From positions 4,707-36,706 of the forward strand of contig NZ_SZZW01000008.1 in assembly GCF_009829915.1 (NCBI RefSeq): a stretch of DNA of 32,000 nucleotides. The letters are read 5' to 3'. Below, one piece after another: positions 1,081-31,998 of the stretch (position 1 is its first letter; each line of letters opens with the position of its first letter). The translations under genes were made by a program, and so were the position numbers. The DNA is from Pantoea sp. Nvir. GTDB lineage: Bacteria; Pseudomonadota; Gammaproteobacteria; Enterobacterales; Enterobacteriaceae. The notes under the pieces are model-generated. The model worked only from the letters and a program-made list of their open reading frames with translations. It searched no databases and was not told the origin of the DNA.

Positions 1081-1094
1081 AATAAATGTTCCTT

Positions 1095-4031: not shown

Positions 4032-4043
4032 GAATATAATATT

Positions 4044-5717: not shown

Positions 5718-5725
5718 TTCGTAGT

Positions 5726-7102: not shown

Positions 7103-7111
7103 TTATCCACA
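7103..7111 (+). promoter_or_regulatory. Consensus DnaA box TTATCCACA (origin 1)
   Basis: Exact 9/9 match, lying at the outer edge of the origin-like region upstream of repA-1. Confidence 0.75.
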
Positions 7112-7123
7112 GTTTTACAGGTT

Positions 7124-7172
7124 AGATCCAATAATTAGACCAATAAGATCCTATATAGTACCAAATAGATCC
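7124..7172. repeat. Three phased AGATCC (GATC/Dam) repeats of origin 1
   Basis: AGATCC occurs at 7124, 7146 and 7167, with spacing of 22 and 21 bp. The repeats lie between the DnaA box and the iterons, as in P1-type oriR. Confidence 0.65.
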
Positions 7173-7219
7173 CCGTAAGCTGTAGGCCGCACTGTACTTG
7201 GCTTAAAGGCTTATCCTGA

Positions 7220-7324
7220 TGTGTGCTGGCGGGATAAAAATGTGTGCTGGCGGGATAAAAATGTGTGCTGGCGGGATAAAAATGTGTGCTGGCGGGATAA
7301 AAATGTGTGCTGGCGGGATAAAAC
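7220..7324 (+). repeat. Five directly abutting 21-bp iterons (tgtgtgctggcgggataaaaa) of replicon 1
   Basis: Units are at 7220, 7241, 7262, 7283 and 7304. Four are identical and the fifth ends ...aaaac. The array ends 50 bp upstream of the repA-1 ATG. Confidence 0.9.
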
Positions 7325-7374
7325 TACTTTTAGTGCATTCTTTGAATTCTTTTTTAAAGAAATGAGATAACTCA

Positions 7375-8241
7375 ATGATAGATAAGTTTTTTATAGCTGA
7401 TGCACTCTACGGTGATATGGTCAGTAAAGAAAAACAGCTCACAGTTAATTCGAACAATACTGTTCAGCCAGTTGCACTCATGCGACTTGGGGTCTTTGTT
7501 CCAAAGCCGACTAAATCACAGGGTGAGAACAACATTGTTGATGCATCTGAGTTATTTTCTCAGCTTGAACTTGCAAAAGCTGAGGGGTATGACAATATCA
7601 ATATCTCTGGTCCGCGCCTGGACATGGACTGTGATTTTAAAGTTTGGATAGGCATAATCTACGCGTTTAGTAAAGGTGGTATGAATACAAATAAGATTGA
7701 ACTCAAGTTCACAAAATTTGCAAAAGGTTGTGGCTTTTCAGCAAAGCGTATAGATGGTCGTCTACGTAGTTCTATCCATGATTCTTTGGGTAAGCTGAGG
7801 AATAAGTCTATCTCATTTAAACGTGGCGCGGATGTACGAGGAAGCTATCAAACTGGTTTATTAAAAACTGGTTACTTCGATGCTGACAGAGATATCATTC
7901 AACTTGAAGTAGATGAAAAGCTTTGGGAGCTGTTTCAGCTAGACTATCGAGTGTTACTGCAACAGTACGCTATTAAAGCTCTTCCGAAGAAAGAGGCTGC
8001 ACAGGCTATATACACGTTTATCGAGAGCTTACCAGCTAATCCAGTACCTGTGGGTTTCCAACGTTTACGTGAACGCCTATCGTTAACTAGTACTGTAAGC
8101 GAACAGAACCGTACGATAAAAAAGGCGTTGGATCAACTTCAACATATTGGATATCTGAAATTTTCTTTATTTCGCAAAGAGCGGGAGAATTTTTTAATTA
8201 TTCATAAAAGAAACCCAAAATTAAAACAATTGGATTTATGA
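7375..8241 (+). CDS. repA: Plasmid replication initiator RepA, P1 RepA / RepFIB family (replicon 1)
   Basis: 288-aa [33 protein letters not shown] and EAAQAIYTFIESLPANPVP match the remembered RepFIB RepA sequence ([19 protein letters not shown]..., [32 protein letters not shown]). The gene is flanked by iterons. Confidence 0.9.
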   Translation: MIDKFFIADALYGDMVSKEKQLTVNSNNTVQPVALMRLGVFVPKPTKSQGENNIVDASELFSQLELAKAEGYDNINISGPRLDMDCDFKVWIGIIYAFSKGGMNTNKIELKFTKFAKGCGFSAKRIDGRLRSSIHDSLGKLRNKSISFKRGADVRGSYQTGLLKTGYFDADRDIIQLEVDEKLWELFQLDYRVLLQQYAIKALPKKEAAQAIYTFIESLPANPVPVGFQRLRERLSLTSTVSEQNRTIKKALDQLQHIGYLKFSLFRKERENFLIIHKRNPKLKQLDL

Positions 8242-8244
8242 AAG

Positions 8245-8260
8245 TGTGTGCTGACGGGAT
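8245..8260 (+). repeat. Downstream iteron copy of replicon 1 (15/16 match, direct orientation)
   Basis: tgtgtgctgAcgggat lies immediately after the repA-1 stop. Confidence 0.7.
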
Positions 8261-8404
8261 GTACAGTTGCTTTGTTGAATACAAAGAAGTGTGACTACAT
8301 AACAAAACTCTCCTTATAAACACTGTTACATGTGCAATCAGAGGTAGTTAAGACATTAACAACCCACTTTTATACTTATTCATTTTGCTTAGAAATTAAT
8401 ATAC

Positions 8405-8420
8405 ATCCCGCCAGCACACA
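8405..8420 (-). repeat. Downstream iteron copy of replicon 1 (16/16 core, inverted orientation)
   Basis: atcccgccagcacaca is the reverse complement of tgtgtgctggcgggat. Confidence 0.75.
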
Positions 8421-8945
8421 TTTAAGATTCTCGTCAAACTATGACCCTAAGTTACAACTATTTATTTGATAAGAGTATTTTTTCCATTGTAAGATCGCAC
8501 AGTTGAGAAAATACAGATTTGTATAGTAAGGTGTAGAGACCACTAAACGGAGGCATATTATAGAGCTGATACTAAATACTCTACAGCAAAAGCACAGTAC
8601 TACTAAGTAGTGCAAAGGATATTATAATTTCAAATTATCCTTATATTTTGTGATATACTGACTAAAGTATCTTATAATCCCCTGTTTTAAACAGCTAAAC
8701 ACGTAAAACTTAAGTTTATAGTTACAATAATGCCTTATTTACCACGTTAACACCTTCAGTCAATGTTATATGATAGATAGGATTGTCATCAAAATTGATC
8801 GCGAGTGTGTATTTTGAAAAAAATTAAAAACCAGTTACAGTATACCCTGGTGCCATAACTAAAATATGACGGTACACCGTTAATAATTTAACTTATATGA
8901 TATAGGTTAAATTCGAAAAGATAAATGCGACAATATGGTGAAACC

Positions 8946-9572
8946 ATGTTCATCAGAGCTTATTTAAGGGCGTCAACAGAAGATCAGTTTGCCGATCGGG
9001 CAAAAAAAGTCTTAGAACAATTTGTTCAAGAACGAGGGCATAAAATAGCTAGTTACTATAGTGAAAATGTGAGCGGTACAACGCTTGACCGTCCGGAATT
9101 GGGGCGGTTACTAATGGATAGCCATCACAACGATATTTTACTAGTAGAACAAATAGACCGACTAACCCGTCTAAGCAACAGTGACTGGATAACAATGAAA
9201 AAACAGATTGAGCAACATAAGCTCCGCATTGTCAGTCTGGATGTTCCTACCTCATGGCAGGCACTGTCGGATAAAGAACCCTCACAAACTGATCCAATAA
9301 CACACGCCGTTATTACAGCTATCAATAACATGCTAATTGACTTAATGGCAGCGATGTCACATAAAGATTGGTTAAGCCGACGTCAAAGGCAAAAACAGGG
9401 GATAGAGCGGGCACATATGCTAGGTAAATACCGAGGAAGACGTGCCGACCACGATCGGCACCAGAAAGTCTTGTACTACCGACAGGTTAAAAAACTAAGT
9501 ATACGGGAAACTGCAGACGCCACAGGATACAGTACCTCCCAAGTATGCTGGTCTGGTATCCGTTCCACTTAA
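8946..9572 (+). CDS. Serine recombinase (resolvase/invertase family)
   Basis: The track ORF starts at 8925, but the family-typical start is MFIRAYLRASTEDQ (catalytic-Ser motif Y-x-R-x-S-x-x-x-Q) at the 8946 ATG. Also present are DRPELGRLL, LLVEQIDRLTR and a C-terminal HTH-like LSIRETADATGYSTSQV. Confidence 0.85.
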   Translation: MFIRAYLRASTEDQFADRAKKVLEQFVQERGHKIASYYSENVSGTTLDRPELGRLLMDSHHNDILLVEQIDRLTRLSNSDWITMKKQIEQHKLRIVSLDVPTSWQALSDKEPSQTDPITHAVITAINNMLIDLMAAMSHKDWLSRRQRQKQGIERAHMLGKYRGRRADHDRHQKVLYYRQVKKLSIRETADATGYSTSQVCWSGIRST

Positions 9573-9740
9573 TTGGTTAAACCACAACCTAGTGCACTTG
9601 CACAACAGAAAATAAGTCTTAGAATGTGGAGAAAATATTTTTTCTAGTAAAAAAATAAAAATTATCTTTCTTTAACAAAAAGAAAATTATTTATGCATCC
9701 ACAGCAACACATAATAAAGTTCTAAAAAAGAAAGGTCTTT

Positions 9741-11012
9741 ATGGAAAAGCTATCCTACGCGTTTGAAAACAGCACATCTGCTTGGTCTACCTATCTCCAG
9801 CAAATCGACCGTGTTGCACCCTATCTTGGCGAACTGGGGTGCTGGATAGATACACTTCGCCACCCAAAACGCGCTCTGATCGTTGATATTCCTTTGCAAA
9901 TGGATAACGGCACTATCCGCCATTTTGAAGGTTACCGCGTTCAGCATAATCTTTCGCGCGGACCTGGGAAAGGCGGTGTTCGCTATCATCCCAATGTAGA
10001 TCTTAACGAAGTAATGGCTCTTTCCGCGTGGATGACTATTAAGTGCGCTGCAGTCAACCTGCCTTACGGAGGCGCCAAAGGAGGCATTCGATGTGATCCT
10101 TTTGCACTATCGGAAAGCGAACTAGAGCGCTTAACTCGCCGTTACACCAGTGAGATCGGCATCATAATTGGACCACAAAAGGATATTCCTGCACCTGATG
10201 TTGGTACCAACAGTAAGGTAATGGCATGGATGATGGACACCTACTCTATGAACAGTGGTACGACAGTGACCGGTGTGGTAACAGGTAAACCTATTCACCT
10301 CGGCGGCTCGCTGGGAAGAGAGAAAGCAACTGGTCGCGGCGTGTTTATTACTGGCCGTGAAATGGCGCGGCGTGCGAGCATTCCTATTGAAGGTGCTCGT
10401 GTAGCGGTACAGGGATTCGGCAACGTCGGTAGCGAGGCAGCGCGTCTGTTCAGCGAAGCCGGCGCCTCTGTAGTAGCAGTTCAAGATCACAGCGCCACCC
10501 TTGCTAATCTGAACGGTATTGATATGGCTGCGCTGACACGCTGGCAACAACAGTATAAACAGATCCGCGATTTTCCAGACGCGCAAGAGATTGATGGAGA
10601 GGCATTCTGGACTACTCAGATGGATATCTTGATACCGGCGGCAATTGAAGGGCAAATCACACGTGCGCGAGCCGAAACACTAAGCTGTAAACTTTTACTA
10701 GAAGGTGCAAACGGCCCTACTTATCCTGAAGCAGACGACATGCTGGCCGCGCGCGATATTATCGTAGTACCAGATGTCGTCTGTAACGCGGGAGGTGTTA
10801 CAGTAAGTTACTTCGAATGGGTACAGGACATGGCAAGTTTTTTTTGGAGCGAGGAAGAGATTAATGCACGAATGGATAAGATCATGACTGACGCCATAGT
10901 ACATGTCTGGAACAAATCTAAAGAGAAGAGTTGTTCGCTGCGTACAGCAGCCTATATCGTTGCGTGTGAGCGTATTTTAATAGCACGCAAAGAACGCGGT
11001 ATTTATCCTTGA
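9741..11012 (+). CDS. Glutamate dehydrogenase (Glu/Leu/Phe/Val dehydrogenase family, about 420-aa class)
   Basis: 423-aa ORF with [21 protein letters not shown] (catalytic Lys region) and the dinucleotide fold [11 protein letters not shown]. Confidence 0.9.
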
Positions 11013-11066
11013 TAAAAAAGCTGAATACAGTAAGCCCGATTTTTAGAAATCGCACATGACTACCGT

Positions 11067-11125
11067 CAGTAGCGCAGTGCTAGTAGCCACCCTACATTTA
11101 GGTGGCTACTAGCACTGCGCTACTG
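11067..11125. repeat. 25-bp perfect inverted repeat with 9-nt loop between convergent genes (probable bidirectional terminator or REP-like element)
   Basis: cagtagcgcagtgctagtagccacc (11067-11091), loop ctacattta, ggtggctactagcactgcgctactg (11101-11125). No T-tract follows on either strand. Confidence 0.6.
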
Positions 11126-11180
11126 CGACTACGTAATCTCTGGATATACCACTGACAAAGCCATTAGGCATAACATCACG

Positions 11181-14100
11181 TTATTCCGTTGTCTTGCGAT
11201 TACTCAGGGAAGCTTTAACAAACTCAGCAGCGCGTTTTCCTGCTAAGAATGCATGGTCCGAATTATAATACTCCCACTCGCTGTAACGTCCTGAAAGATA
11301 AATACCCTGAGTTGCCAACCAACTGCGAATCAAATGTACATTTGCCTGACGATAGTGGTCATATACCACATAAGCATAAGGCATATCTACCTCATTTGCA
11401 GTAATAATAACATCTTCAGTACGAAGAATACCAACACGAATACAGTCGTCAATACAGCGCTGAATCAATGCGTCACCTTCACAAGGTAAAGGTTGCTCAG
11501 TGCGGTAGGTGATCTCACAGATGAGGCCAAAGCATCCTGCTGGATTACATTCCGGGCTGGCATTCCCTTGTAAAAAAATGCGGTGAAACAGAGTATCTCC
11601 TGGATAGTAAATCCAGTGTTTATCGCTTAGAGCTTCGCGCCCAATACCGAGATTAACACAGCGCACTGAAACGTGATTTAGTAATAACGCAGCTTTCTGA
11701 ATAGCTTCTGGCACGCAATTGCCCATCAGTTGCACTAGTTCAGGTAGCGGTAGTGTGCTGATCATTTGCTCATAGCGATAATGACGACCATCCTTAGTAA
11801 TAACATCACGATTTTTTAGCTGGATCTCAACGATCTCAGATTGAGTATCTAGCGCGCATTTAAGATAAGGTAGGAAGCCGTTCATTAATGCCTGAAAACC
11901 GCCACGTTTGGGATAACCAAAACGTGCATTAGGTCCGACAGGATTGTCCAGCGGCATCAGCGCACCAGAAATAATTTGTTCTAAATTAGGCATTGGAACT
12001 CGCTCACCGAGCCAAGATGTCTCTATATTAGCAAGCGACATCTTCCACAGTTTACGATTATAAGGAATTGCAAAATGACGCGCAATGCCTCTTCCCCAAG
12101 TACGGAAGATAAATTTTTCAAAATCTTCACCGGTGTTTTCTGCCTCCCCTGCCGATTTTGTCGCTTCAGCGTTAAACATACCATCTGAGCAACACACCGC
12201 CTGTCCTGTTGTATTCAACAGTGTGGTATTCCGAGTGCCATGTATACCGTAACAAGCTTCTACTGCTCCCAATATACACTCACTAATTACCTCTGCCGGT
12301 AACCCATATAATGATGACTGAAAAGGGTAACGAGTAAAGACATTATGGCTATAAACCCAAGCTTCACGCGTTTGCCAATGCAGGTTATCACCAAGTAGTT
12401 TTTCATAGAGTTGTAAAACATAAGGATCTTTTGAAAACATGATATGACCGGCATAATCAAAGGTAAATCCTTTTTCTTGAATTGAACGACACCAACCGCC
12501 CGGCGTTTCATTTTTTTCTAGTAATACCGCGCCTTCACCGTAGTGGTAACCTATGCTTAAGCCGGTTGGTCCTGCACCTAGAATCAGACATTCAACAGGA
12601 CGTGATGGCACCATATGTATCGGCTTATTAGTATCTAGACTCTTATTATAGGAAATAGTTTGAACAACTTTTTTATTTCGTAGACCAGCAATATGCTCTT
12701 GCATCCGCTCAACGGTACTATCCCAAGAAGTTTTAGCAATAATTATTGCCATTTTTGCTGCCTGTTCTCTACGAGCTTCTTCGCTGAGATCTAAAACATT
12801 TTCGCAAGCATTTATAAAATCTTGCGTAGTGTCAACAATATTGACCACATCATTAAAATGGCGCACTATATCCGGGACCGCCGTGCTAACAATTGGCAGT
12901 TGCGCAGCCATATACTCCAGTACTTTAGTAGGGCTAATAAAACGAGTTGAGGTATTTAGCACAAAAGGTATCAGGCAGATATCCCATCCTACTAAGAAAT
13001 GGGGTAAGGCCTCGTAGGGCTGTTGACCGAACCAATGAAGATTAGTTCGCTGGGGCAGCGTGTTGGGATCTATTTTTACCACTGGACCGACCATCACTAT
13101 CTGCCATTCAGGACGGGCATCAGCCAGCGCTCCAATCAGTGCAATATCCATACGTTCGTCAATTACACCGTAATAGCCTAATCGTGGGCTCGGAAGAGTC
13201 TGCTGTAGCGGATGACCGTTACTACGGTCAAGCGCCTGCTCAAAATGAGCGGCATCGACACTACTAGGAAAACAATACACGTTTTTGTGTCGATGCTTTT
13301 TCGCTTCATATAGGCTGGTACCACCGGTAAACACAATATCAGCACAGTTAAGTAATTCTGATTCGCGTTGTTGAAGCTGTTGAGGTGCCATATGGAAAGC
13401 AGAAAGTTCATCCATGCAGTCATAAATAATGGCTCTGGGATTAAAGCAAGTTAACAACGGCAGCGCCATTGGAGTATAGAACCAAATTAACGGCTGTTCA
13501 TCTTTCTCCAGCAGTAAAGTTAATAAGGGTTGTAATACTATTATTTGGCTATCATGGAAACCTGGAGCGTCAACATCTGTATGTGGTTCAATAACGGTTA
13601 CGTTCGGTGCGGCTACGTAAGTATGTAGCCCTGCTTCACCGGGTTGATAAACTGGCTCCTCAATAAAGAGAACGCGGTAGTATTGAGCGAGGCGAGATAA
13701 TAAATGCTGTGGACGTTGAAAAACGAAACCCCAGCGCAGATGACTAAATACCACTAAAACAGAATGTTTCATAAAGGACTCCTGTGGCCTGATAGACGAT
13801 GATAGAAAAAATTGAAATCGGTGCAGTGTTCTTTGGGATTGCCGCAAAGCTGCAGCTGTGGGTTGATGTAACAGACGTGTAAAATCAGAGGCAATGTCCC
13901 AGAGTCCGCTATGCGGCCAATATTGGGGATCTTCCCAAAGAGGACTGTCAAGAATAGGATAAATACATATCCCTTGGATATCGCAGCCATTAAGCTGTGC
14001 CTGAGCTACTTGTGCAGCAATATGGTTTATCCAAGCTGGTCGGCCACTTCCGACATGGCTGGTTTCTGAGAGCAGAATCGGGCGTTGATAACGTTGTGAT

Positions 14101-14969
14101 AAGTTTACTAGCATTTTGTGCAACGGCATGCGACGAGTATCGCCTAGATGCCAATGCAGACGCAGATTAGAGTTAGTTTCCCATTGATTAGCGTGATAAT
14201 AATTAGCGCCGATAATATCAAGATAGCGTGGCATGCCGCCCAGTTCTGGCTCACACATACCAACTAGCATATCCCATGCTTGAAATTGCGCAGCATTAAG
14301 GTCAGCGGTACGCTGGTGACAGTGATCGCTGTCTTCATCGGGGACTAAATAGATGATAGGATCACAATGAAGAAACCGCGCCCGCGGGTCAACGAGCCAA
14401 ATGGCTTCGCAGCCCGCTAAAGTAGCCCGTACTAGTTGACGCTTAATCGCATTTGAATCGTCATGGTGGTAATTGCCAAACAGTCCATCAGAGAGTCCCC
14501 AACTCAGAAAAGAGATCTCATTCATAGGGGAATAAATAGGCGAGCAAGCGTACCACGGTTTTAAAAACTTGGCGACACGCCGGCAAAATTCCGCAAATCT
14601 TAGAATAAAATCATCAGAAAAAAGATCAAGATTTTTTGGCCAACCGTAGTGGCAAAAAGTCCAGTTGATCTGTATTCCTAGTTTATAGGCCGCCTCCATT
14701 TTACCTTTGATAGTAGCGAAGGTCTGTTTTGGATCTACTTCCATTTGCCTCCAACCGATACTTTCTCTCACGGTAATAATGTTAAAATGTTTTAAAGCAA
14801 CATAGTCATTGTAAAACTGCGTTTGATGATCATTCAGTATATCCATTACCAGCGGTCTTCCTTCAGTATTGATATGGTCAGCACCTTCATAACCGGCCTG
14901 CCAGAAACTAGAAAAAGACAAAATCACACCCTCCTGTAAAGATTCAGGAAAAAACATCCATATTTCCAT
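11181..14969 (-). CDS. Tri-modular ORF: N-terminal clan-A TIM-barrel glycoside-hydrolase-like module (aa 1-399), GT-B glycosyltransferase module (aa 400 to about 770), C-terminal FAD-dependent UDP-galactopyranose-mutase/amine-oxidase-like module (aa about 786-1262)
   Basis: A single uninterrupted 1262-aa ORF. The GH-like module has NEISFLSW and LLSETSH, candidate acid/base and nucleophile Glu. The GT module begins MKHSVLVVFSHLRWGFVFQRPQHL at the ATG 13772..13770, which is preceded by AGGAG with a 6-nt spacer. The FAD module has ECLILGAGPTGLS...LLEKNETPGGW (GxGxxG plus E...GG). Confidence 0.8.
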   Translation of the reverse strand: MEIWMFFPESLQEGVILSFSSFWQAGYEGADHINTEGRPLVMDILNDHQTQFYNDYVALKHFNIITVRESIGWRQMEVDPKQTFATIKGKMEAAYKLGIQINWTFCHYGWPKNLDLFSDDFILRFAEFCRRVAKFLKPWYACSPIYSPMNEISFLSWGLSDGLFGNYHHDDSNAIKRQLVRATLAGCEAIWLVDPRARFLHCDPIIYLVPDEDSDHCHQRTADLNAAQFQAWDMLVGMCEPELGGMPRYLDIIGANYYHANQWETNSNLRLHWHLGDTRRMPLHKMLVNLSQRYQRPILLSETSHVGSGRPAWINHIAAQVAQAQLNGCDIQGICIYPILDSPLWEDPQYWPHSGLWDIASDFTRLLHQPTAAALRQSQRTLHRFQFFLSSSIRPQESFMKHSVLVVFSHLRWGFVFQRPQHLLSRLAQYYRVLFIEEPVYQPGEAGLHTYVAAPNVTVIEPHTDVDAPGFHDSQIIVLQPLLTLLLEKDEQPLIWFYTPMALPLLTCFNPRAIIYDCMDELSAFHMAPQQLQQRESELLNCADIVFTGGTSLYEAKKHRHKNVYCFPSSVDAAHFEQALDRSNGHPLQQTLPSPRLGYYGVIDERMDIALIGALADARPEWQIVMVGPVVKIDPNTLPQRTNLHWFGQQPYEALPHFLVGWDICLIPFVLNTSTRFISPTKVLEYMAAQLPIVSTAVPDIVRHFNDVVNIVDTTQDFINACENVLDLSEEARREQAAKMAIIIAKTSWDSTVERMQEHIAGLRNKKVVQTISYNKSLDTNKPIHMVPSRPVECLILGAGPTGLSIGYHYGEGAVLLEKNETPGGWCRSIQEKGFTFDYAGHIMFSKDPYVLQLYEKLLGDNLHWQTREAWVYSHNVFTRYPFQSSLYGLPAEVISECILGAVEACYGIHGTRNTTLLNTTGQAVCCSDGMFNAEATKSAGEAENTGEDFEKFIFRTWGRGIARHFAIPYNRKLWKMSLANIETSWLGERVPMPNLEQIISGALMPLDNPVGPNARFGYPKRGGFQALMNGFLPYLKCALDTQSEIVEIQLKNRDVITKDGRHYRYEQMISTLPLPELVQLMGNCVPEAIQKAALLLNHVSVRCVNLGIGREALSDKHWIYYPGDTLFHRIFLQGNASPECNPAGCFGLICEITYRTEQPLPCEGDALIQRCIDDCIRVGILRTEDVIITANEVDMPYAYVVYDHYRQANVHLIRSWLATQGIYLSGRYSEWEYYNSDHAFLAGKRAAEFVKASLSNRKTTE

Positions 14970-15490
14970 ACATTCAACGATATTTCTGTCATAGCAAAAG
15001 AATCGAATAGAGCCGAAAACGATATCTTTACTAATTATTTCTGTATGCGAAAATTTAAAGTTTGTGTGTAATTGAAGAAGTTTGAATTCAAGAAAAACTT
15101 TATCCGGTAAGCAGATAAAAAAGAATCTATAAATTACTAGTTTCAGTGAGCGAACACTTTTAATTGGAGTATAACTCTCCTTACTCTTCCCACAAGAAAT
15201 TCAAGAAAAAGAAAATTGAATCATTCTATAAAAAGCAATTTGTACTCACGGTATACTTACGAGCCCTAGTATCTATATGTTTATATAGTTCAATATCCTA
15301 AACGGCTAGAGCTATTCCATTAGAAATAGCAGAATACATGCTAATAAAACTACCTTATCATGTAGAGAAAGCACATCCTATCTGTACTGAGTGGGGTGAG
15401 ATGTTCTAAACCAAAAGCTGTGTAAAATTTTTTATCTTTTATATATCTGGTAATTGAAGCTTGTGCAACTAGTATAAAGAGCACATTTGT

Positions 15491-17803
15491 ATGAAAAATC
15501 AAAATAAAGATATTGGTATTGTGCCTTATGGAGGCCCGGCAGGTGGATGGGGTGCGCTGAAAGCGGTGGTAGATGCGATTCGTGGGCAGATGTCAGTTAA
15601 AGAAAATATAATTGCGCTGTTTAAAGTCAATCAGCCTCAGGGATTTGACTGTCCCGGTTGTGCTTGGCCCGATCCACAATATCATTCATCCTTTGAGTTT
15701 TGTGAAAACGGTGCTAAAGCTGTCTCTTGGGAAGCTACTAGCAAGCGAAATACACCAGAATTTTTTGCAGCTCATACCGTTAGTGCACTGTGGAAACTTA
15801 ATGCATTTGAGCTAGAAGGAGAAGGGCGACTGACGCATCCCATGAAGTATAATTCAACCAGCGATACCTATCAGACCATTCAATGGGAAACGGCCTTTCG
15901 CGAGATTGGCACACTTTTACGAAACTACATTGATCCCAACAGTGTAGAATTTTATACTTCGGGACGTACTTCTAATGAGGCTGCATTTCTCTGGCAACTT
16001 TTCGCCCGTGAATATGGCACCAATAACTTTCCTGATTGTTCTAATATGTGTCATGAACCGACTAGCGTCGGGCTACTGCAATCTATAGGCATCGGCAAAG
16101 GTACAGTGAATCTGGAAGATTTTAATCACTGTGATCTAGTGCTCTGCATTGGCCATAATCCCGGCACTAATCATCCGCGCATGCTGGCGACACTACGCGA
16201 AGTTTCCAAACGCGGTAAAAAAATCGTAGCGATAAATCCTCTACGTGAGCGTGGGCTGGAGCGTTTTACCCTACCACAGAGCCCGATTGAGATGTTATCA
16301 ATGAGATCAACACAGATAGCGTCTATGTACTATAAAGTGCGAGTCGGCGGTGATGCAGCGATGCTAAAGGGCATAATGAAGTGTTTGCTGGTAATGCATA
16401 AAGATAGGATATCATTAAAAGAGCAAGGCGTGCTGGATGAAACTTTTATAAAAGAGCATACCGAAGGTTTTGACGCTCTAAAAGCAGACCTTGATGAAAC
16501 AGAATGGTCATATATTTTTAAGGTTTCAGGTATGACGTTCGCAGATCTTCAAAATATTGCTCACTTATACGCCACAGCGGAAAACACTATCATTTGTTAT
16601 GGCATGGGAATAACGCAGCATCAACACGGTACGCAAAACGTTCAGCAGATCGCTAATCTTTTACTATTACGTGGCAATATTGGCAAACGCGGCGCAGGAA
16701 TCTGTCCGTTGCGCGGTCACTCAAACGTACAGGGCGATCGTACCGTCGGCATTACAGAAAAACCGCCGCTGTGGATGCTAAATAATATCGAAAAGGTGTT
16801 TGGTTTTAAGCCTCCGCACAAACATGGACACGGCGCGGTAGCAGCCATACAGGCAATACGCGACGGCAAGGCTAAAGCGTTATTGTGTTTAGGCGGTAAT
16901 CTAGCGGAAGCTATCTCTGATCCACAAGTAACTTTTAAAGCAATGCGCACACTCGATTTAGTAGTGCATATTGCAACTAAGCTTAACCGCTCTCATCTAC
17001 TTCTCGGCAAGCACAATTACCTATTTCCAGTACTGGGCCGTACTGAAGTTGACCGACAAGCATCAGGCGTGCAGAGCATTACAGTAGAAGATTCCATGTC
17101 GATGGTACACGCATCCCGAGGGACACTGATGCCTGTTTCACCACATCTTAAATCAGAACCGGCGCTAATAGCTGATCTAGCGAAAGCGACGCTGCTCAAT
17201 TCACGTGTAGACTGGAAGAAAATGGTGAGCGACTATAGCCTTATTCGAGATGCTATTGAAGCGATCATCCCTGGTTTTGATAATTTTAACAAGCGTATCC
17301 TGATACCAGGTGGTTTCCGTTTGCCAATTGCGGCCTCGCAACGTAAATGGCTAACGCCCAGTAGCAAAGCTCAGTTTAAAGTAATGCAGGGAATAAATGA
17401 AGACCCATGTTCGCTGAAGTGTCATGATTTGGTACTAACTACGCTGCGTAGCCATGACCAGTATAATACTACGCTCTATGGTTTGAATGACCGATACCGC
17501 GGTGTTACGGGTCGTCGTGATGTGCTGTTTATAGCGGCAGCTGAAGCAGAAAAACGACAGTTACGTGATGGCGATAAAGTCAATATAATAACGCTCGATA
17601 ATGAAGGTAACCGCACCAAGCGGCGACTAGATAACCTTACGCTTGTAGTGTATGACATGGCGCCAGGATCGGTAGCAGCTTACTATCCGGAAGCTAACAT
17701 TATGGTACCACTTGAAAGCTATGATAACGAAAGTGGTACTCCCTCCTATAAAAGCATCCCCGTAGTGTTAGAGCTAATAGACACTTTAGGAGTACTTCTC
17801 TAA
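15491..17803 (+). CDS. ydeP: FdhF/YdeP-family molybdopterin (bis-MGD) oxidoreductase
   Basis: 770-aa ORF, collinear with my remembered E. coli YdeP sequence: GGWGA, FDCPGCAWPDP, SGRTSNEAAFL.QLFAREYG.NNFPDCSNMCHEPTSVGL, GICPLRGHSNVQGDRTVGITEKP, RSHDQYNTT.YG..DRYRGV. Confidence 0.9.
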   Translation: MKNQNKDIGIVPYGGPAGGWGALKAVVDAIRGQMSVKENIIALFKVNQPQGFDCPGCAWPDPQYHSSFEFCENGAKAVSWEATSKRNTPEFFAAHTVSALWKLNAFELEGEGRLTHPMKYNSTSDTYQTIQWETAFREIGTLLRNYIDPNSVEFYTSGRTSNEAAFLWQLFAREYGTNNFPDCSNMCHEPTSVGLLQSIGIGKGTVNLEDFNHCDLVLCIGHNPGTNHPRMLATLREVSKRGKKIVAINPLRERGLERFTLPQSPIEMLSMRSTQIASMYYKVRVGGDAAMLKGIMKCLLVMHKDRISLKEQGVLDETFIKEHTEGFDALKADLDETEWSYIFKVSGMTFADLQNIAHLYATAENTIICYGMGITQHQHGTQNVQQIANLLLLRGNIGKRGAGICPLRGHSNVQGDRTVGITEKPPLWMLNNIEKVFGFKPPHKHGHGAVAAIQAIRDGKAKALLCLGGNLAEAISDPQVTFKAMRTLDLVVHIATKLNRSHLLLGKHNYLFPVLGRTEVDRQASGVQSITVEDSMSMVHASRGTLMPVSPHLKSEPALIADLAKATLLNSRVDWKKMVSDYSLIRDAIEAIIPGFDNFNKRILIPGGFRLPIAASQRKWLTPSSKAQFKVMQGINEDPCSLKCHDLVLTTLRSHDQYNTTLYGLNDRYRGVTGRRDVLFIAAAEAEKRQLRDGDKVNIITLDNEGNRTKRRLDNLTLVVYDMAPGSVAAYYPEANIMVPLESYDNESGTPSYKSIPVVLELIDTLGVLL

Positions 17804-18431
17804 AAAAGAGTAGAATCAATATTAAATTTATTTGATTATTCCATTTTTTATCAGTCTTTTAGACTGAACCTAATTGGACTTGGATATGCTATGTAAGCAT
17901 TATTTCTGCTTCTTTTCTGAATATTTATTTGCAAAAGTTTATTTTAAATATTTTTATAAAAATGCAGTAATTACTTTAAATTTTAAGGCCTATAAGCTAA
18001 TTGCATATTTGCGTGGAGGGGAGTTTTGTTAAAAACATCTGGGCGAAGCTTCTCGAGATATGAAGTTAAGGTACTTCTATCCCCTCTTGAATGCAACCTT
18101 AATCAAAAAAACTAAGTAATAAAAATGTTTTAAATTTTCATATTAGAACTTTTATGATCTGATTATGCATAATGTTTATTGTGCAACTATTCTATTAGAA
18201 TGACCGTATAAGTTGTGTTTTAACTGGTTTAATAAGAATACTCTGAAGCATATGAATCGTTAAAAACTTATTGCACCTCTGGAAATAATCTTCAAGGTCA
18301 ATTAGGTATATTCTTAGTGGAAAGAAAAACACTCGGCGGAATGATGCATGACAACCTGGGGGGATTATCAATGCCCTTTCAATCACTGTGAAAATAAAAA
18401 TTAGGCGCCAGGTTAAATAAAGTAAAGACGA

Positions 18432-18452
18432 GCGCACACTATTTGTGTGCGC
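18432..18452 (-). terminator. Rho-independent terminator of fumC
   Basis: The hairpin is gcgcacac-tattt-gtgtgcgc. On the minus strand it is followed by TCGTCTTTACTTTATTT. It lies about 80 nt downstream of the fumC stop. Confidence 0.6.
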
Positions 18453-18533
18453 CTGTACATTCCTGAACTATCAAACAGACAAGATATACATCTTGTGATA
18501 GAGTTTTGCGATTTATAGTAAAAATGAGCAAGA

Positions 18534-19955
18534 TTAGCTTCTTCGTTTAGATTCACATGAAGGCTTTATGCTACTGAGCATATCATTTGGATTGACCCAA
18601 GCATTAAATTCCTCTTCAGTCAAATATCCTAGCTGTAGCGCCGCTCTCTTTAGTGTTAGTCCTTCTTTATGCGCTTTTTTCGCGATTTCTGCCGCTTTGT
18701 CGTAACCAATATGAGGATTAAGCGCAGTTACCAGCATCAGTGACTTATTGAGCATCTGCGTGATGCGATCACGATTCGGCTCAATACCGATCGCGCAGTG
18801 ATGGTTAAAGCTGTCCATACCGTCAGTTAGTAGACGTACCGACTGCAGAAAGTTATGGATCACCATTGGACGAAAGACGTTCAATTGAAAATTACCAGAG
18901 GCTCCACCGATATTAATGGCTACATCATTACCCATTACCTGACAGCAAAGCATAATTAGCGCTTCACATTGGGTCGGGTTAACCTTGCCAGGCATGATGG
19001 AACTACCTGGCTCGTTTTCTGGAATAGATAGTTCGCCGATACCGCAGCGTGGCCCAGAAGTCAGCCAGCGTACATCATTGGCGATCTTCATTAATGAAGC
19101 TGCTAGTCCCTTTAATGCACCGTGTGAATGTACTAGCGCATCGGTAGTGGCAAGAGCTTCAAATTTATTTGGCGCAGTAATAAATGGCTGTCCTGTCAAC
19201 TTAGCTAGTTCTTTCGCCACTCGCATAGCATACTCAGGATGAGTATTTAGTCCAGTTCCAACGGCGGTACCACCCAGAGCTAGTTCTGCTATGTGAGGGA
19301 TACTTTGTTCAATATGTTCAAGACTATGTCCCAGCATTGCTACCCAGCCAGAGATTTCCTGTCCTAAAGTCAATGGTGTTGCATCTTGCAGATGAGTACG
19401 GCCAATTTTTACAATATCTTTAAAGTTTTCAGCCTTTTCGTTTAGCGTCTGCTTAAGCATCTGAATTTGCGGGATAAGCTTTTTGCGTAGCGCAAGAAGC
19501 GCTGCTACGTGCATCGCTGTCGGAAAAACGTCGTTTGAACTCTGGCTTTTATTCACATCATCGTTAGGATGAACAAGACGAGAGATGCCGCGTTCACCAC
19601 CAAGAATTTCGCTAGCACGGTTAGCTAATACCTCGTTCATGTTCATATTCGTCTGAGTACCGGACCCTGTCTGCCAGATCACCAAGGGAAATTCACCTTT
19701 GTGTTCGTCAGCTAGGACTTCATCAGCAGCTTTCATAATTGCATCGGCCCTATCTTTAGGTAATAGGCCCAATTCACAATTTATAGCCACGGCAGCGCGC
19801 TTAGTTTGCGCTAGTGCGTAAATAAGCTCAATAGGGATTTTTTCAGTAGAGATACGGAAATATTTCAATGCACGCTGAGTTTGTGCGCCCCATAACTTGT
19901 CTGCAGGTACCTCAATGGGCCCGATTGAATCTCGCTCAATGCGATTATCTGCCAT
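18534..19955 (-). CDS. fumC: Class II fumarate hydratase
   Basis: 473-aa ORF with the [16 protein letters not shown] signature and near full-length similarity to E. coli FumC. AAGGAG lies 6 nt upstream of the ATG. Confidence 0.95.
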
Positions 19956-22992: not shown

Positions 22993-23916
22993 TTAGTACC
23001 GTGAAGGTACCCCTTTAGGACGTGTTTTAAAACGTCTATGTAGCCACATATACTGTTCTGGCGCACATAAAACAGCTTTTTCTACTACGGCATTCATACG
23101 TCTGACGATGTCGAAACTTAATTTACCCTCTAGTTCATGGCTAATTTCTGGCAAAATCAGCAACTCATAGCCCTTATTTCCAGGCAATCGGCGAGGTATA
23201 AAAGGCAATACAGCAGGAGCAGCACTACGAATTAAAATAACGGTACCTGCTGTCGTCGCTGCTTGCTGTACAGCAAAGAAGGGGACGAAAATGCTACCAC
23301 GAGGCCCGTAATCATGATCCGGGGCATACCAAAGAATCTCATCCTGCTTAAGTGCACGGATCATACCTTTCAGATCGTAACGGTCCAGCATAGTCTTATT
23401 TGACCGTAGACGCCCCCAAGTTTGTAGCCAATCTAGCAATGGATTATTATTAGGACGATAGACTCCGATACCTGGGTTAAGCATACCAAATATTCGTGCT
23501 CCTAACTCAAGTGTTAGGAAATGCATTCCAACTAGCAGAACGCCCTTCTTTGGGTCACGCGCTTGCTTCATATTTTCATATCCAGTCACAGTAAACCATT
23601 TTTTTACCCGCCAATCTGGCCAAAACCAGGCCATCCCAGTTTCCATTACAGCCATGCCAACTGATTCAAAGTTATTTTTTAGTAGTCGTGCTTGTTTATT
23701 AGCAGGCATCTCAGGGAAACAGAGCTGAATATTGCATCTGGCTATATCAACGCGCTGCGGCATCATACGCCAAGCTAATTTACCCATTCCCTTACCGATA
23801 ATGCGTATGATCGGATAAGGCAACAATACAAGGAACCAGAGTAAAATAATACCTAACCAGTAAGGCCAGTAGTACGGATGCAATAATGATGGTGTAAATT
23901 TGGCTATTTTAGTCAT
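22993..23916 (-). CDS. lpxL: Lipid A biosynthesis lauroyl (Kdo2-lipid IVA) acyltransferase
   Basis: Collinear with E. coli LpxL/HtrB: KF...[108 protein letters not shown]. The likely start is MTKIAKF (23916); the track start is 23937. Confidence 0.9.
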
Positions 23917-24812
23917 AATTAGATATCTTTTTTTCAAAAAATAAAACTAAAACATTATAAGCGGAGAAGTATAATAGATAAAAAACTTTAGAAAAACTAT
24001 CGTAAATATTTTTCTGATTAACAGAGTAAGAAATCCCTAGTTAATGCATCTGTATTCTTATGAAAATACATTCCTTTATTATCATAGACGCATATTTCAT
24101 ATGACATAAAAATGTTTTGAATTTACTTAAATTTTATAAAAAATATATATTTTTTCTTCTTTATAAATTAAATCTTAATTACGTGTGTATAAATTAACTT
24201 TATTAAAACATTCATTATTAATATAATAATTCCTTATATCATAATATACATTAATTAAATATTTACAAGATGTTTGATATGTTAATAAATGTTGTTCTAA
24301 CATAATTTAAAATTCAGACTGTGTCTTTGAATTTATCTGTTTTAGTGTGTCTTAGATAACCCACTATAATCGGCGATACCGAATAGTTAGGTGCAGTATC
24401 ATATCATATATGATCAAGTACCGATATTTTGTAAAACATATCATGTATGAATATTCATTCATATAATTGAATAATTATCTTCTTGTATCTTCTGTCAATC
24501 CTCTGACGTATAATCCCAGAGAAGTAGTGCCTTTTTACTTGAACTTCGCTAGATTGCGCGTAGCCTATTATATAGGCCTATACAGTTCATGCAAAAGGAG
24601 TTATATAAACATGCCAGTCTAATGCACGAAAAATTTTAAGAATCATTAGTTAATTAATGTATCATCCATCACGCGTGACTGAAGACTAATTTAAGCTTGG
24701 CATGAGCAGCAGAAAGTAGGCACAGTTGTTAAATCCACGTTAAGCTGGGTTCCGAAAATAGCGAGTATCAGGTTGATCAACTCCTACAAGCACACCCCAC
24801 AAGGAGACGTGC

Positions 24813-25601
24813 ATGAATAGAGGCGTGAAAATTCATACTGCGGAGCAAATCGAGCAGGCACGCGCTGCAGGTCATGCCGCTGCGCAGGTTCTGGCGATGA
24901 TCGCCCCACATGTTCGTATCGGCATTACTACTGAAAAACTGGATGATATTTGTTACGATTTTATTGTTAATAAGCTTAAGGTAATTCCTGCCAATATTGG
25001 TTATCAAGGGTACATACGCACCATCTGCACTTCTGTGAATCATGTAGTGTGTCATGGCATTCCCTCAGGCAGGATACTGAAGAAAGGGGATATTGTTAAT
25101 ATTGATGTTGGCATCATTAAAGATGGCTGGTATGGCGATACGAGCCGCATGTATTTTGTCGGAGAACCTTCTGTACGTGCAAGAAGGCTGGTCAATATTA
25201 CATATCAGTCTATGGTGGCAGGCATTAAAACTGTTAAGCCTGGTGCAACACTTGGGGATATTGGAGCAGCGATCCAGTACGTAGCGGAAGGCGCAGGCTT
25301 CTCAGTGGTACGAGAATATTGCGGGCATGGTCTTGGTCAAATCTATCATGACGAGCCACAAATCCTTCATTATGGGACTTCGGGTGAAGGGATAGTACTA
25401 CAGCCTGGTATGATTTTCACCATTGAGCCAATGATCAACGCTGGTAAAGCTGGCACTACAGTGCTATCTGATTACTGGACAGTTGTGACAAAAGATCGTT
25501 CTCTTTCTGCACAGTGGGAACATACAGTGGCGGTAACCGAAATTGGATTCGATCTGCTGACGCCTTGGCCCGATGGCACTGGCAATTATCCTGATATTTA
25601 A
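24813..25601 (+). CDS. map: Type I methionine aminopeptidase
   Basis: 262-aa ORF with VCHGIP, GDIVNIDV, DGW.GDTS.M, FSVVREYCGHG.G, FTIEPM.NAG and KDRSLSAQ.EHT, collinear with E. coli Map. AAGGAG lies 7 nt upstream. Confidence 0.9.
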   Translation: MNRGVKIHTAEQIEQARAAGHAAAQVLAMIAPHVRIGITTEKLDDICYDFIVNKLKVIPANIGYQGYIRTICTSVNHVVCHGIPSGRILKKGDIVNIDVGIIKDGWYGDTSRMYFVGEPSVRARRLVNITYQSMVAGIKTVKPGATLGDIGAAIQYVAEGAGFSVVREYCGHGLGQIYHDEPQILHYGTSGEGIVLQPGMIFTIEPMINAGKAGTTVLSDYWTVVTKDRSLSAQWEHTVAVTEIGFDLLTPWPDGTGNYPDI

Positions 25602-25711
25602 TTTTAAGAGAACAGAATTGTGCTGATCATACCTCTTCCCTCTAATGTCAATACGGGATACCATCCGGCAAAGTATATGAAGGGAAAGGTCAGTATGGTT
25701 GATTTAATATG

Positions 25712-25737
25712 CTCTGCTTGGTAAGCCAGAGTTTTTG
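25712..25737 (+). terminator. Rho-independent terminator downstream of map
   Basis: ctctgctt-ggt-aagc(c)agag forms a stem with one bulge and is followed by TTTTT (25732-25736). Confidence 0.55.
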
Positions 25738-27163: not shown

Positions 27164-27177
27164 GACGTGTGATACCT

Positions 27178-27936: not shown

Positions 27937-27939
27937 GGT

Positions 27940-28137
27940 TTAACCTCCCTGCATAGGTAACAACACTTCCAGACAACACCCCACTTCCAGACGCTGGTTA
28001 TCATACTGGGCACGTGGCAGAAACTGGCCGTTATAGGCACTAACAACGCAAGTAGCATCAATTTGTCTTTCATGTAGTAGCGCCGCTACGGTTGCTACCT
28101 CTGTTTCAACTATCTGGCCATTGAGTTCAATTTGCAT
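27940..28137 (-). CDS. thiS: Sulfur-carrier protein ThiS
   Basis: Internal start MQIELNGQ... of track ORF 27940..28293. It encodes 65 aa ending in the obligatory C-terminal GG (LLPMQGG). The gene overlaps the thiO stop by 11 nt. Confidence 0.9.
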   Translation of the reverse strand: MQIELNGQIVETEVATVAALLHERQIDATCVVSAYNGQFLPRAQYDNQRLEVGCCLEVLLPMQGG

Positions 28138-29149: not shown

Positions 29150-29467
29150 AAAGGGAAATCATGGGAAGCAGCGAAACAGTGGTTTTATATCCCTTAGCAA
29201 ACAGCAAAAAAGACACATCACTAGCAATATCACCTTTCAGTTCGGAGATCTCTAAACCAAGCCCTGTATTATTATGCTTTCCGACCTGTGGACTAATCTT
29301 TTCAATTGTAGAGTAATTGCCTAGTTGGTGCAAGCGCATTATGTTAATCACATATTCAATCTGTGGTTTTATTTCAGCTGTTGAACAACTAAGAGTTGGT
29401 TCCCGTTATAACGACAGATATGAAAAATATAATTAAAACAATATCAAAAACCTACTATTAACATAGC

Positions 29468-29500
29468 AACCACCCCATGTATTTTATACATGGGGTGGTT
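29468..29500. repeat. 14-bp perfect inverted repeat with 5-nt loop (stem-loop)
   Basis: aaccaccccatgta-tttta-tacatggggtggtt. No adjacent T-tract. It lies in the non-coding stretch between thiO and replicon 2. Confidence 0.6.
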
Positions 29501-30221
29501 ATGGTGATTAAAAATTAATAACTAGATTTAAAAAATCCACTGCTTATCATGAATATTTCCAAGGTATTTTAATTTTTAAATTGAATACCTTAACTATAAT
29601 CATCATATGCACTCTATATGATAAACTGCTGCATGAAGCTTGATATCACACAAAAATGATTTGTCAAAGAGCGTAGCGTGAAACAGCAAAACGATCAAAT
29701 ACTGGTTCAGATTAAAGTAAATTATAAAACTACCTTAAAATTGCTTACATCTATTCCGACTAGATTATTGTCTGCGGTGAAACCTTTTGTTATTTTTGCT
29801 GATCTAGATAATAGATCAATTAGACGGTCTGGAATTTTAGCTCATAACTTCTCGTCCACGAGCACTTCAACGAATTAATTTCACGTGCTCCACTGACATA
29901 CTTTTATGCTGATTTTACAATTAATATTTAAGAACCACCATCAAAAATCGCACAAAATTCCGGATGGCAATCATAGTACTTAGATATACTGTGGTGATGA
30001 ATAGATATCAATAAATAATATTATCATGCGATATTGTATACTTGGTTACACTATCTGAACATCAGAGTTAATATGTTGGAACGAGTAAGTTCCTTCGCTT
30101 AAATTTGGTGAAATTTCCTTTTATGTAATGTTTTTATGTGCCTCAATTTGTGCAGTTTTACGGCTCTGATTTTCTATAAGTTAAATAAAAATGACTGTTA
30201 TTATTTTGGTTAGTTCATAAT

Positions 30222-30802
30222 CCACTGTAATCAGTGGATGCAGGATAATAACTAATAGAAAATATTCAAGAACTATATGTTTCTGTTCCGAGAACTATAT
30301 GTTTCTGTTCCGGATGAAAGCCAGGTAATCAATAGTCAAGAGATAAGAAAAATTATCTGAAGCGGGATAGTTTAAGTTTAGAAGATAGAAAGATTCACTG
30401 TAATCAGACGCATCAAATAATAAATCATAATAAGTAGTCAAGAATGGTCACTAATTCAAGTAACTACAAATTCGTTAACAGATATATCGTAGGAACATTC
30501 ACTGTAGTTAACATCACAAAAATACAGAGGATAATCTTAAAAAGACAAATAAAAATAATTAGTTATCATCAATAACCGTAGCTAGTAATTCCACTATATA
30601 AAAAACCAGAGCTCGTTAGCATAAAGATATAAGATAGCGAGAAATGGCTAATCAGTACATATTGGCATAATTTTTATTCATTGAATTAAAATAATTTAAA
30701 TGACTAAATTCCTATTATTAAAGAAAAATTAAATACGGAAATAGGGCGATTTTAATATCTGTACACTACAGTAAATTTACAAAATCACTGATTACAGTGA
30801 AC
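30222..30802. repeat. Dispersed downstream iteron copies of replicon 2 (incA-like control locus)
   Basis: Core tgatta(c/t)agtg(a/g)a is found at 30788-30802 (direct, ctgattacagtgaac), 30394-30407 (inverted, perfect ctgattacagtgaa) and 30222-30233 (inverted, ccactgtaatca). Degenerate inverted copies lie at 30498-30510 and 30590-30598. Confidence 0.65.
30269..30312 (+). repeat. Perfect tandem duplication, 2 x 22 bp (agaactatatgtttctgttccg)
   Basis: The units at 30269-30290 and 30291-30312 are identical. Confidence 0.9.
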
Positions 30803-30810
30803 ACCATCTG

Positions 30811-31752
30811 TCAATCATTAAAATTAAGTGTGTTGATCAATTCTATATTTTCAAAATTGCTTATCCCATCGAGCTTCGGCGTGCGACTATGGATGATAAA
30901 AAATACCGAACACCCGCGTTTGCCTTCTGAATAATCTAGATAACCTATTTTTTTCAATTGCTCCATAGCACGCCGCACGACATAATTTTGTGTGGTTATT
31001 TTAGACCCTAAATTCAAACGTATGCGAAGACGTGCCAGTGAAATAGGTGCTGGATTTATCGGAAGACTCTCAAGGAACGTATAGAGTGCTTGGGCAGATT
31101 CTTTGCGCTTGAGTTGGGATATTGCCCTAAGTTGCAGTAAAACTTTATGGTCGAAATTATATAATTCAAACAATTTAGGATCGGACTGAATTCTGACCAC
31201 ATCTTTTTCTCGATCGTAGTAGGCTGATTGCACTAAATGAGTATGATAAGCCTTACCATTTCCTTCAAAAGATAAAGTGTTAGTCGATATACGGCGTAGG
31301 GAAGCATCGAGTCTTTTACGTAATGCTGCCGACGAGTTGGCCGAAGGGATGCCACACATTTTTACAAAATCTATAAAGGGCAAGGTAACAGTGTCCCCTT
31401 GAGTGGGATAACGTGAAAAGGATTGAATTATTCCAGCCCAAGTTTTAAAATCGTTATCCATGTCCAACCGTGCGCCGGTAATGATTACCTTCTCATAACC
31501 CTCTGCTTTTACTAGTGAAAGATTCTTTAGTTCCTTAGTCGCATCAGTAGACGCCATCACACCAGATTTACCGCGTGCTGTTGATTTCAATGTCGGGACA
31601 AATAGCCCCAGCCGCATCAAAGCGACAGGCTGAACAGTGTTATTTTTGTTAGGATGAAGCTGAATAACTTCACCGCCATTTTTGGTTACCAACAGAAAAT
31701 TTTTAAGCAATTCTTTGTTTTTAATATTTTCATCTGACATAACATGAGACAT
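30811..31752 (-). CDS. repA: Plasmid replication initiator RepA, P1 RepA / RepFIB family (replicon 2)
   Basis: 313-aa [90 protein letters not shown] and [11 protein letters not shown] lie closer to the remembered RepFIB RepA than the first copy does. The start could be the M at 31740. Confidence 0.9.
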
Positions 31753-31780
31753 CCATTCCTACGAATGAGAAAATTATTCT

Positions 31781-31879
31781 CTAACTATAGTGAACACTAT
31801 CACTGATTATAGTGAATATTTTACAGAATATAGTGAATTATTTACTGATTATAGTGAACTGTTTGCTGATTATAGTGGA
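31781..31879 (+). repeat. Five iterons of replicon 2 (consensus ctgattatagtgaa, 21-22-bp register)
   Basis: Cores start at 31781, 31803, 31824, 31845 and 31866, with spacing 22, 21, 21, 21. They lie immediately upstream of the minus-strand repA-2 start. Confidence 0.85.
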
Positions 31880-31889
31880 CATCATCGCC

Positions 31890-31920
31890 GCCGCAGGCCT
31901 TGTCAGATAAGGCCTGCGGC
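31890..31920. repeat. GC-rich 12-bp perfect stem with 7-nt loop between the iterons and the GATC cluster
   Basis: gccgcaggcctt-gtcagat-aaggcctgcggc. Confidence 0.6.
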
Positions 31921-31927
31921 AATCAGG

Positions 31928-31976
31928 GATCTATTTGGATCTATTTTAGATCTATTTGTGATCATCTATTAGGATC
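31928..31976. repeat. Five phased GATC (Dam) sites of origin 2
   Basis: GATC occurs at 31928, 31938, 31949, 31960 and 31973, embedded in repeated gatctattt-like units. Confidence 0.75.
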
Positions 31977-31989
31977 TAATTCTTGTATA

Positions 31990-31998
31990 TGTGGATAA
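31990..31998 (-). promoter_or_regulatory. Consensus DnaA box (TTATCCACA on the minus strand), origin 2
   Basis: tgtggataa is an exact reverse complement of the DnaA box. It sits at the outer edge of origin 2, mirroring origin 1. Confidence 0.75.

Follow-up and report, generated by a model that had tools for sequence, protein, structure and literature searches.

Two P1-type replicons and a shared resolvase-gene repeat in the 42-kb plasmid contig of the stink-bug symbiont Pantoea sp. Nvir

The P1/RepFIB replicon family, the reduced RepA plasmids of stink-bug symbionts, cointegrates and multi-replicon plasmids are all already known. The P1 prophage plasmid (IncY) has the layout oriR/incC-repA-incA, and LPP-1, the large plasmid (~300-800 kb) universal in Pantoea, has a core consisting of repA, parAB, thiOSGF and crtEYIBZ (PMC3505739). 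Candidatus Pantoea carbekii carries the plasmids pBMSBPS1-4, which are small RepA (RepFIB-like) plasmids found at high coverage and without partition genes, and whose cargo comprises gdhA, thiamine genes, or NUDIX and inositol monophosphatase genes (PMC4350177). The stretch of DNA analysed here, 32,000 nucleotides in length and referred to below as the window, belongs to a 42,233-bp contig of Pantoea sp. Nvir, the gut symbiont of the stink bug Nezara viridula, whose genome comprises 1.43 Mb at 40.6% GC in 11 scaffolds (PMC8032781). Two replicons are present in the window, and both follow the element order of P1 and RepFIB. What is new here is the identification of a 709-bp repeat, R, lying between them, and the exposure of an ambiguity in the assembly. 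The public 42-kb "plasmid" of Nvir is best treated as two replicon units joined through this repeat, pending long reads.

For the Nvir assembly Unicycler 0.4.8 was given only Nextera reads (MiSeq 2x300), and the contigs were sorted by hand in Bandage (PMC8032781). For comparison, use was made of the independent assembly GCA_960934465.1, obtained with MEGAHIT (k up to 141) from Dutch insects (PMC11195473), together with Logan contigs from two separate sequencing runs. The Dutch symbiont is 99.8% identical to the US Nvir strain.

Each of the two Nvir origins can be aligned column by column with the P1 oriR annotated in K02380, and also with the origins of pPAG02, a 582-kb LPP-1 plasmid of P. agglomerans, and of free-living Pantoea. 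The blocks common to both origins and P1 are a DnaA box, Dam/GATC heptamers, a GC-rich spacer and five iterons spaced at 21 bp, the last of these lying directly upstream of a gene for a Rep_3 initiator. The two initiators, RepA1 and RepA2, match Pfam Rep3_N (PF01051), and their identity to P1 RepA (69% and 48%, respectively) spans nearly the full length of both proteins. Between themselves they are 43% identical over 267 aa, in agreement with a sequence-only reading of this DNA that had put them by eye at under half. The same reading had assigned both replicons to the P1 layout; the assignment is borne out by these alignments, and all the elements it had listed are present where it had placed them. 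On this homology, both replicons in the window appear to be genuine theta replicons of the P1/RepFIB (Rep_3) family under iteron control. NCBIfam contained no model matching RepA1 or RepA2, and an Rfam search of the whole window at gathering thresholds gave no matches. When either replicon was used as a megablast query against PLSDB nothing close was found, the top matches being ~75% identical. The scan of genome contigs for relatives favoured RepA1, and the best relatives of RepA2 came from the plasmid search instead.

Replicon 1 lies on the forward strand at the left of the window. Its DnaA box (7103-7111) is a perfect TTATCCACA, placed by the alignment opposite the DnaA site annotated in P1 oriR; only one other perfect copy occurs in the 32 kb, at 31990-31998 on the reverse strand, and each stands at the outer end of its origin. 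Three AGATCC repeats follow at 7124, 7146 and 7167 (span 7124-7172, with GATC sites at 7125, 7147 and 7168) and align with the Dam heptamers of P1. The five identical 21-bp iterons equivalent to incC occupy 7219-7323, with the core TGTGTGCTGGCGGGAT differing from the P1 iteron at one base; in the form TGTGTGCTGGCGGGA the core equals copy 11 of the P1 iteron exactly. Seven good matches to this core were found in the window against 0.1 expected by chance. The gene repA1 (7375-8241, forward strand) encodes a Rep_3-family initiator of 288 aa, and downstream of it is a reduced incA-like region (8245-8420) with two iterons, one at 8245-8260 on the forward strand with one mismatch and one at 8405-8420 on the reverse strand with none. 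The DNA-level alignment of replicon 1 with P1 and P7 starts at the DnaA box and extends into repA. Replicon 1 is not foreign: RepA1 is 83-90% identical to the plasmid RepA of free-living P. piersonii, P. septica, P. ananatis, P. allii (plasmid pB) and others. The RepA1-type plasmids of free-living Pantoea have the same five origin iterons together with 6-11 downstream iterons.

The iterons of origin 1 are perfect 21-mers with the spacers included, whereas the spacers have diverged in P1 and in all of the Pantoea relatives. In the Dutch MEGAHIT assembly, contig 9 has only two copies of this iteron at the origin, either because the assembler collapsed the repeat or because the number of copies truly differs.

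Replicon 2 is read on the reverse strand from the right end of the window. Its DnaA box (31990-31998), again a perfect TTATCCACA, and its five GATC repeats together span 31927-31998 and align with P1 and pPAG02. No other 70-bp stretch of the window is as dense in GATC as the one holding these five sites (31928-31973; Poisson P ~8e-6). The GC-rich spacer (31890-31920, reverse strand) folds as a 12-bp hairpin with a dG of -16.5 kcal/mol (z -6) at the position where P1 has its GC-rich spacer. No palindrome is visible in the aligned spacers of pPAG02 and P1, as judged from the alignment alone and without folding. Next come five iterons with 21-bp spacing (31781-31879, reverse strand), whose core TTCACTATAATCAG is also the iteron of the pPAG02 origin, and then repA2 (30811-31752, reverse strand), which encodes a Rep_3-family initiator of 313 aa, or of 309 aa from an alternative ATG at 31740. 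Dispersed iterons are found downstream in the region 30221-30801, at 30221 and 30394 on the forward strand and at 30788 on the reverse strand; this region also bears a 22-bp perfect tandem repeat (two copies of AGAACTATATGTTTCTGTTCCG, 30269-30312). RepA2 shares 88% identity with the pPAG02 Rep protein. Because of this identity, the shared iteron and the presence of LPP-1 core genes around it, replicon 2 is taken as the LPP-1 replicon, carried on a drastically reduced plasmid. In [Erwinia] mediterraneensis two RepA2-type initiator genes lie divergently about 2.2 kb apart on one contig (NZ_LR026979.1, 6885-10867), possibly a true dual replicon of this family in a free-living relative.

Compared with P1, both Nvir replicons are trimmed. 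P1 has a tandem pair of DnaA boxes, whereas each Nvir origin has one, with none on the repA side, and origin 1 has three GATC sites rather than four or five. Of downstream (incA) iterons, replicon 1 has two and replicon 2 about three; P1 has nine, and the Pantoea relatives have 6-11. The partition genes and site of P1 (parA, parB and parS) are absent from the Nvir replicons. In P1 and in pPAG02 parAB sits downstream of repA; with the P1 and pPAG02 proteins as queries, no similarity to parA or parB was detected in the window or in the contigs of both plasmid units, and the earlier remark that parAB is missing beside either repA is thereby upheld. A partition cassette of the kind found in P1 and LPP-1 is not required for membership of the replicon family, but it is part of the canonical maintenance region of P1. 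Both units have lost parAB and most of the control iterons.

By homology to P1, DnaA would bind the outer box at each origin and RepA monomers would bind the five origin iterons, upon which the GATC-rich, AT-rich stretch would open. As the origin iterons would also cover the repA promoter, RepA may regulate its own synthesis, and the downstream iterons are expected to hold the copy number down by handcuffing. Deletion of incA in P1 increases copy number. Given this effect and the few control iterons that remain, both units probably run at raised copy number, which would offset the absence of partition. The sequence-only reading had noted unrelated iteron sequences in the two replicons and had predicted no cross-handcuffing between them. 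The cores TGTGTGCTGGCGGGAT and TTCACTATAATCAG are indeed unrelated, and both replicon types occur on different contigs in six free-living genomes (P. piersonii, P. septica, P. rodasii, Pantoea sp. AS142, Pantoea sp. GD03673 and Mixta sp.), where they probably coexist as separate plasmids; on these two grounds the prediction is a reasonable one.

The window divides at the repeat R (8840-9548, forward strand). To its left is segment A (1-8839), of 30% GC, with sugar-modification genes and replicon 1, which is part of a 14.1-kb AT-rich unit (unit A); to its right is segment B (9549-32000), of 41% GC, with other cargo and replicon 2, which is part of a 27.9-kb reduced LPP-1 unit (unit B). R is the only sequence common to the two units. 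In the Dutch assembly repA1 is located on contig 9 (13,212 bp) and repA2 on contig 7 (27,593 bp), and by BLAST segment A is 99.5-99.9% identical to the former and segment B 99.7-99.9% identical to the latter. Contig 9 stops at window position 8722, where a short contig of 1,158 bp, contig 12, overlaps its end by 141 nt. Contig 12 follows the window as far as 9548 and then diverges with the natural 3' continuation of R, its last 141 nt being the far end of contig 9. With a 141-nt overlap at either end, contigs 9 and 12 together close unit A as a circle of 14,088 bp. Contig 7 begins with 140 nt corresponding to window 8979-8840, joined to sequence upstream of crtY, and ends with window 9268-9548 followed by gdhA. 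As both of its ends enter R from B flanks, unit B closes as a circle of 27,881 bp.

In MEGAHIT contigs 7 and 12, and likewise in the Logan contigs of both runs, the paths part at precisely the same two bases, 8840 and 9548. Added together, the circles amount to 41,969-42,032 bp, a total that agrees to within 0.5% with the 42,233 bp of the source contig; the source contig is an A-R-B-R path through a figure-8 assembly graph. Both RepA genes and a resolvase copy, P0001, are recorded on that contig, its second copy of R being deduced from P0001, and the window itself carries the recombinant junction A-left/R/B-right. Both layouts are mere graph paths, since short reads cannot phase a 709-bp repeat. 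The ends of contig 7 stop exactly k-1 (140) nt past a distinguishing base, namely the flank boundary at 8840 and a single-nucleotide difference at 9408, and contig 12 runs unbroken through R. By default MEGAHIT cuts a branch with less than about one-tenth of the local depth (--disconnect-ratio 0.1). The layout of contigs 7 and 12 fits this disconnect step and would imply that unit A has a much greater depth than unit B. If unit B had less than about one-tenth of the junction depth, an obligate 1:1 cointegrate would be impossible.

R is a remnant of a Tn3-family res-tnpR module, comprising 106 bp of proximal upstream region and nearly the whole of a serine-resolvase gene. The module is 77-80% identical over exactly 8840-9548 in more than 1,500 enterobacterial plasmids. 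The resolvase motifs YLRASTEDQ (with the catalytic Ser) and QIDRLTR (DRLxR) align with those of the Tn3 and gamma-delta resolvases, and the protein matches PF00239. The gene copy in the window (8946-9572, forward strand; 215 aa) has its C-terminal recognition helix cut at the R/B junction, with ...SQVC on the R side followed by WSGIRST and a stop on the B side. The other copy (P0001/P0121, at the A-right flank) ends in ...SQVCRIQAFYSQEER like the rest of the family. As the window copy is cut inside the recognition helix and the family end is intact elsewhere, the R/B-right junction is a derived breakpoint. A C>T change at 9408, which translation shows to be an Arg to Trp missense, marks the Dutch plasmid-B copy and is absent from the Dutch plasmid-A copy and from the US copies; the two copies of R are consequently not fully homogenised there.

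In pChi7122-2 the homologous module adjoins a divergently transcribed Tn3-family tnpA. No similarity to tnpA was found in any Nvir contig, including beside either copy of R; terminal inverted repeats were not searched for. Thus, where a Tn3-family element has res, tnpR and tnpA, the Nvir repeat is a 709-bp remnant lacking tnpA, and one of its resolvase gene copies is truncated. The A-R-B-R topology is nevertheless that of a Tn3-family cointegrate, with two direct repeats each containing a serine-resolvase gene and its upstream region; the multi-replicon IncF plasmids are a further known counterpart. Among five aligned upstream regions only 106 bp are conserved before the resolvase start codon. 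Just left of 8840 the relatives have a short palindrome (CCTATCGCGATAGG or CTTATCGCATAAG), which may be the res crossover site and is missing from both Nvir copies. Farther out, beginning about 25 bp to the left of 8840, a weak similarity to different relatives persists, the A-left flank being EcO128-like and the B-left flank pChi7122-2-like. A 38-bp inverted repeat at the start of R had also been considered as a crossover site and was dropped, as it is not conserved in relatives.

From the sequence alone, the molecule had been interpreted either as a cointegrate of an AT-rich plasmid with a larger Pantoea-type plasmid or as a stable dual-replicon plasmid. The composition of the contig supports the first half of this proposal, as a small plasmid of 30% GC is joined to a Pantoea-type one of 41% GC, yet a single molecule has not been established: the evidence for it is the one 42,233-bp contig, whereas that contig derives from short reads only, the join passes through a 709-bp repeat that had gone unnoticed, and the independent assembly yields circles of 14.1 kb and 27.9 kb. 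It is considered somewhat more probable than not that Nvir has two compatible plasmids without partition genes, which exist mainly as separate circles sharing R, possibly with a minor cointegrate. Recombination within R could fuse circles A and B into such a cointegrate and then split them again. Direct repeats of 709 bp are unstable to recombination, and in Ca. Pantoea carbekii the four small RepA plasmids remain separate molecules, as closure by inverse PCR showed, with coverages of 610x to 7,487x (PMC4350177). Several points weigh against this interpretation. Unicycler/SPAdes emitted a single 42-kb contig for the US sample, and if paired 2x300 inserts longer than about 0.8 kb crossed R, the 42-kb path would represent real A-R-B molecules. 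Unicycler is moreover unlikely to merge segments of very unequal depth, while the depth argument drawn from MEGAHIT rests on the default settings of the program rather than on read counts. Contigs 9 and 12 were left unmerged by MEGAHIT without evident reason, and the Dutch two-circle layout is likewise only a graph path, the 709-bp repeat being beyond the phasing range of short reads. Finally, the completeness of res in R is uncertain, given the palindrome that both Nvir copies lack.

A genuine, stable 42-kb dual-replicon plasmid, in which the US units are permanently fused as A-R-B-R with both P1-type origins on one circle, is regarded as doubtful. It would account directly for one contig bearing both RepA genes and both resolvase copies and equal in size to A plus B within 0.5%, and Unicycler normally merges segments only if depth and the SPAdes paired-end paths agree. 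Resolvase-mediated resolution may also be impossible, the candidate crossover palindrome being gone from both copies of R and the resolvase copy at the A-R-B junction having lost half of its recognition helix; multi-replicon plasmids are common, and the paired RepA2-type genes of [Erwinia] mediterraneensis, 2.2 kb apart, would be a parallel. On the other side, the assembly had only short reads to draw on and underwent manual curation in Bandage, the 99.8%-identical Dutch symbiont closes unit A alone with a contig layout implying very unequal A and B depth, any homologous recombination would split two 709-bp direct repeats, and the related Ca. P. carbekii keeps its RepA plasmids separate (PMC4350177). 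It is thought unlikely that the plasmids alternate by recombination in R between a fused 42-kb dual-origin form in US insects and two circles in Dutch insects. Were this so, the low-copy LPP-1 remnant, with its thiamine and carotenoid genes and map, could hitch-hike on a higher-copy P1-type replicon, and a fusion/fission polymorphism at the population level might aid the inheritance of essential-gene plasmids during genome reduction in an obligate symbiont. Fusion and fission via the resolvase remnant, if real, would also illustrate from nature how cointegrates behave in a reduced genome. That only one replicon functions and the other, for example replicon 1, is a decaying relic surviving by fusion or hitch-hiking with the active one seems highly improbable. 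Replicon 1, with one DnaA box, three GATC sites and only two control iterons, could be read in this way, as could the trimming of both replicons relative to P1 and free-living relatives (one DnaA box each, 2-3 rather than 6-11 control iterons, no parAB) in a host genome undergoing reduction. However, both repA reading frames are intact and identical in two populations, both origins keep every block conserved in P1, pPAG02 and free-living Pantoea, and each Dutch unit closes alone with a single replicon, so that each replicon would have to be able to maintain its own circle. The difference in GC content between the halves (30% against 41%) might suggest a chimera of DNA from two organisms, an explanation which is effectively refuted: in each of two independent populations both halves fall into a single symbiont bin, and they show an equal between-population divergence of ~0.1-0.2%; each data set shows or implies the four flank/R junctions; and both RepA proteins are of the Pantoea type.

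Returning to the two units themselves, unit B is a reduced LPP-1 derivative rather than a typical member. Of the LPP-1 core, thiF, thiG, thiS, thiO and crtE lie in the window together with repA2, and crtY, crtI, crtB and crtZ are located just past its end on the same contig. In common with LPP-1 plasmids such as pPAG02 it has RepA2, the origin iteron and the thiOSGF and crt genes; unlike those megaplasmids with parAB, it has shrunk to ~28 kb, has lost parAB, has a scrambled gene order and carries the truncated res-resolvase remnant. An LPP-1 plasmid has in this way been whittled down in a stink-bug symbiont to a remnant that keeps a P1-type replicon and the thiamine and carotenoid genes at the expense of partition and most copy-control iterons, and a second P1-like mini-plasmid persists beside it. 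The gene sets of the Ca. P. carbekii plasmids recur on units A and B; pBMSBPS2, for instance, carries NUDIX and the inositol monophosphatase SuhB, both of which are also plasmid A cargo. The carbekii plasmids are separate circles by inverse PCR, whereas the deposited Nvir assembly fuses two through a shared repeat.

By Pfam and NCBIfam, the genes of segment B include gdhA, a glycosyltransferase/FAD fusion, a ydeP-like gene, fumC, crtE, a lipid A acyltransferase gene, map and thiFGSO. Those of a housekeeping type, namely map (methionine aminopeptidase), the lipid A acyltransferase gene, fumC, gdhA and the ydeP-like oxidoreductase gene, are found at 22993-25601 and 9741-19955, and on account of such cargo plasmid B may be described as chromid-like. 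The fusion protein, of 1,262 aa, combines a glycosyltransferase with an FAD amine oxidase (11181-14969). Plasmid A cargo (window 1-6280; contig 9, 7604-12288) comprises a GFO/IDH/MocA oxidoreductase, a DegT-type aminotransferase, the NUDIX and inositol monophosphatase proteins, a histidine phosphatase and a PLD-family protein. Three further open reading frames of plasmid A (3276-4031, 4044-4871 and 5079-5549) had no Pfam or NCBIfam match, and the 1-kb windows there have 25-35% GC. At 2846-2889 a palindromic inverted repeat occurs in a non-coding stretch of 19% GC, where a Logan contig also breaks. Between gdhA and the 1,262-aa gene on plasmid B, an indel of ~100 bp with an inverted repeat (11067-11136) separates the US and Dutch strains.

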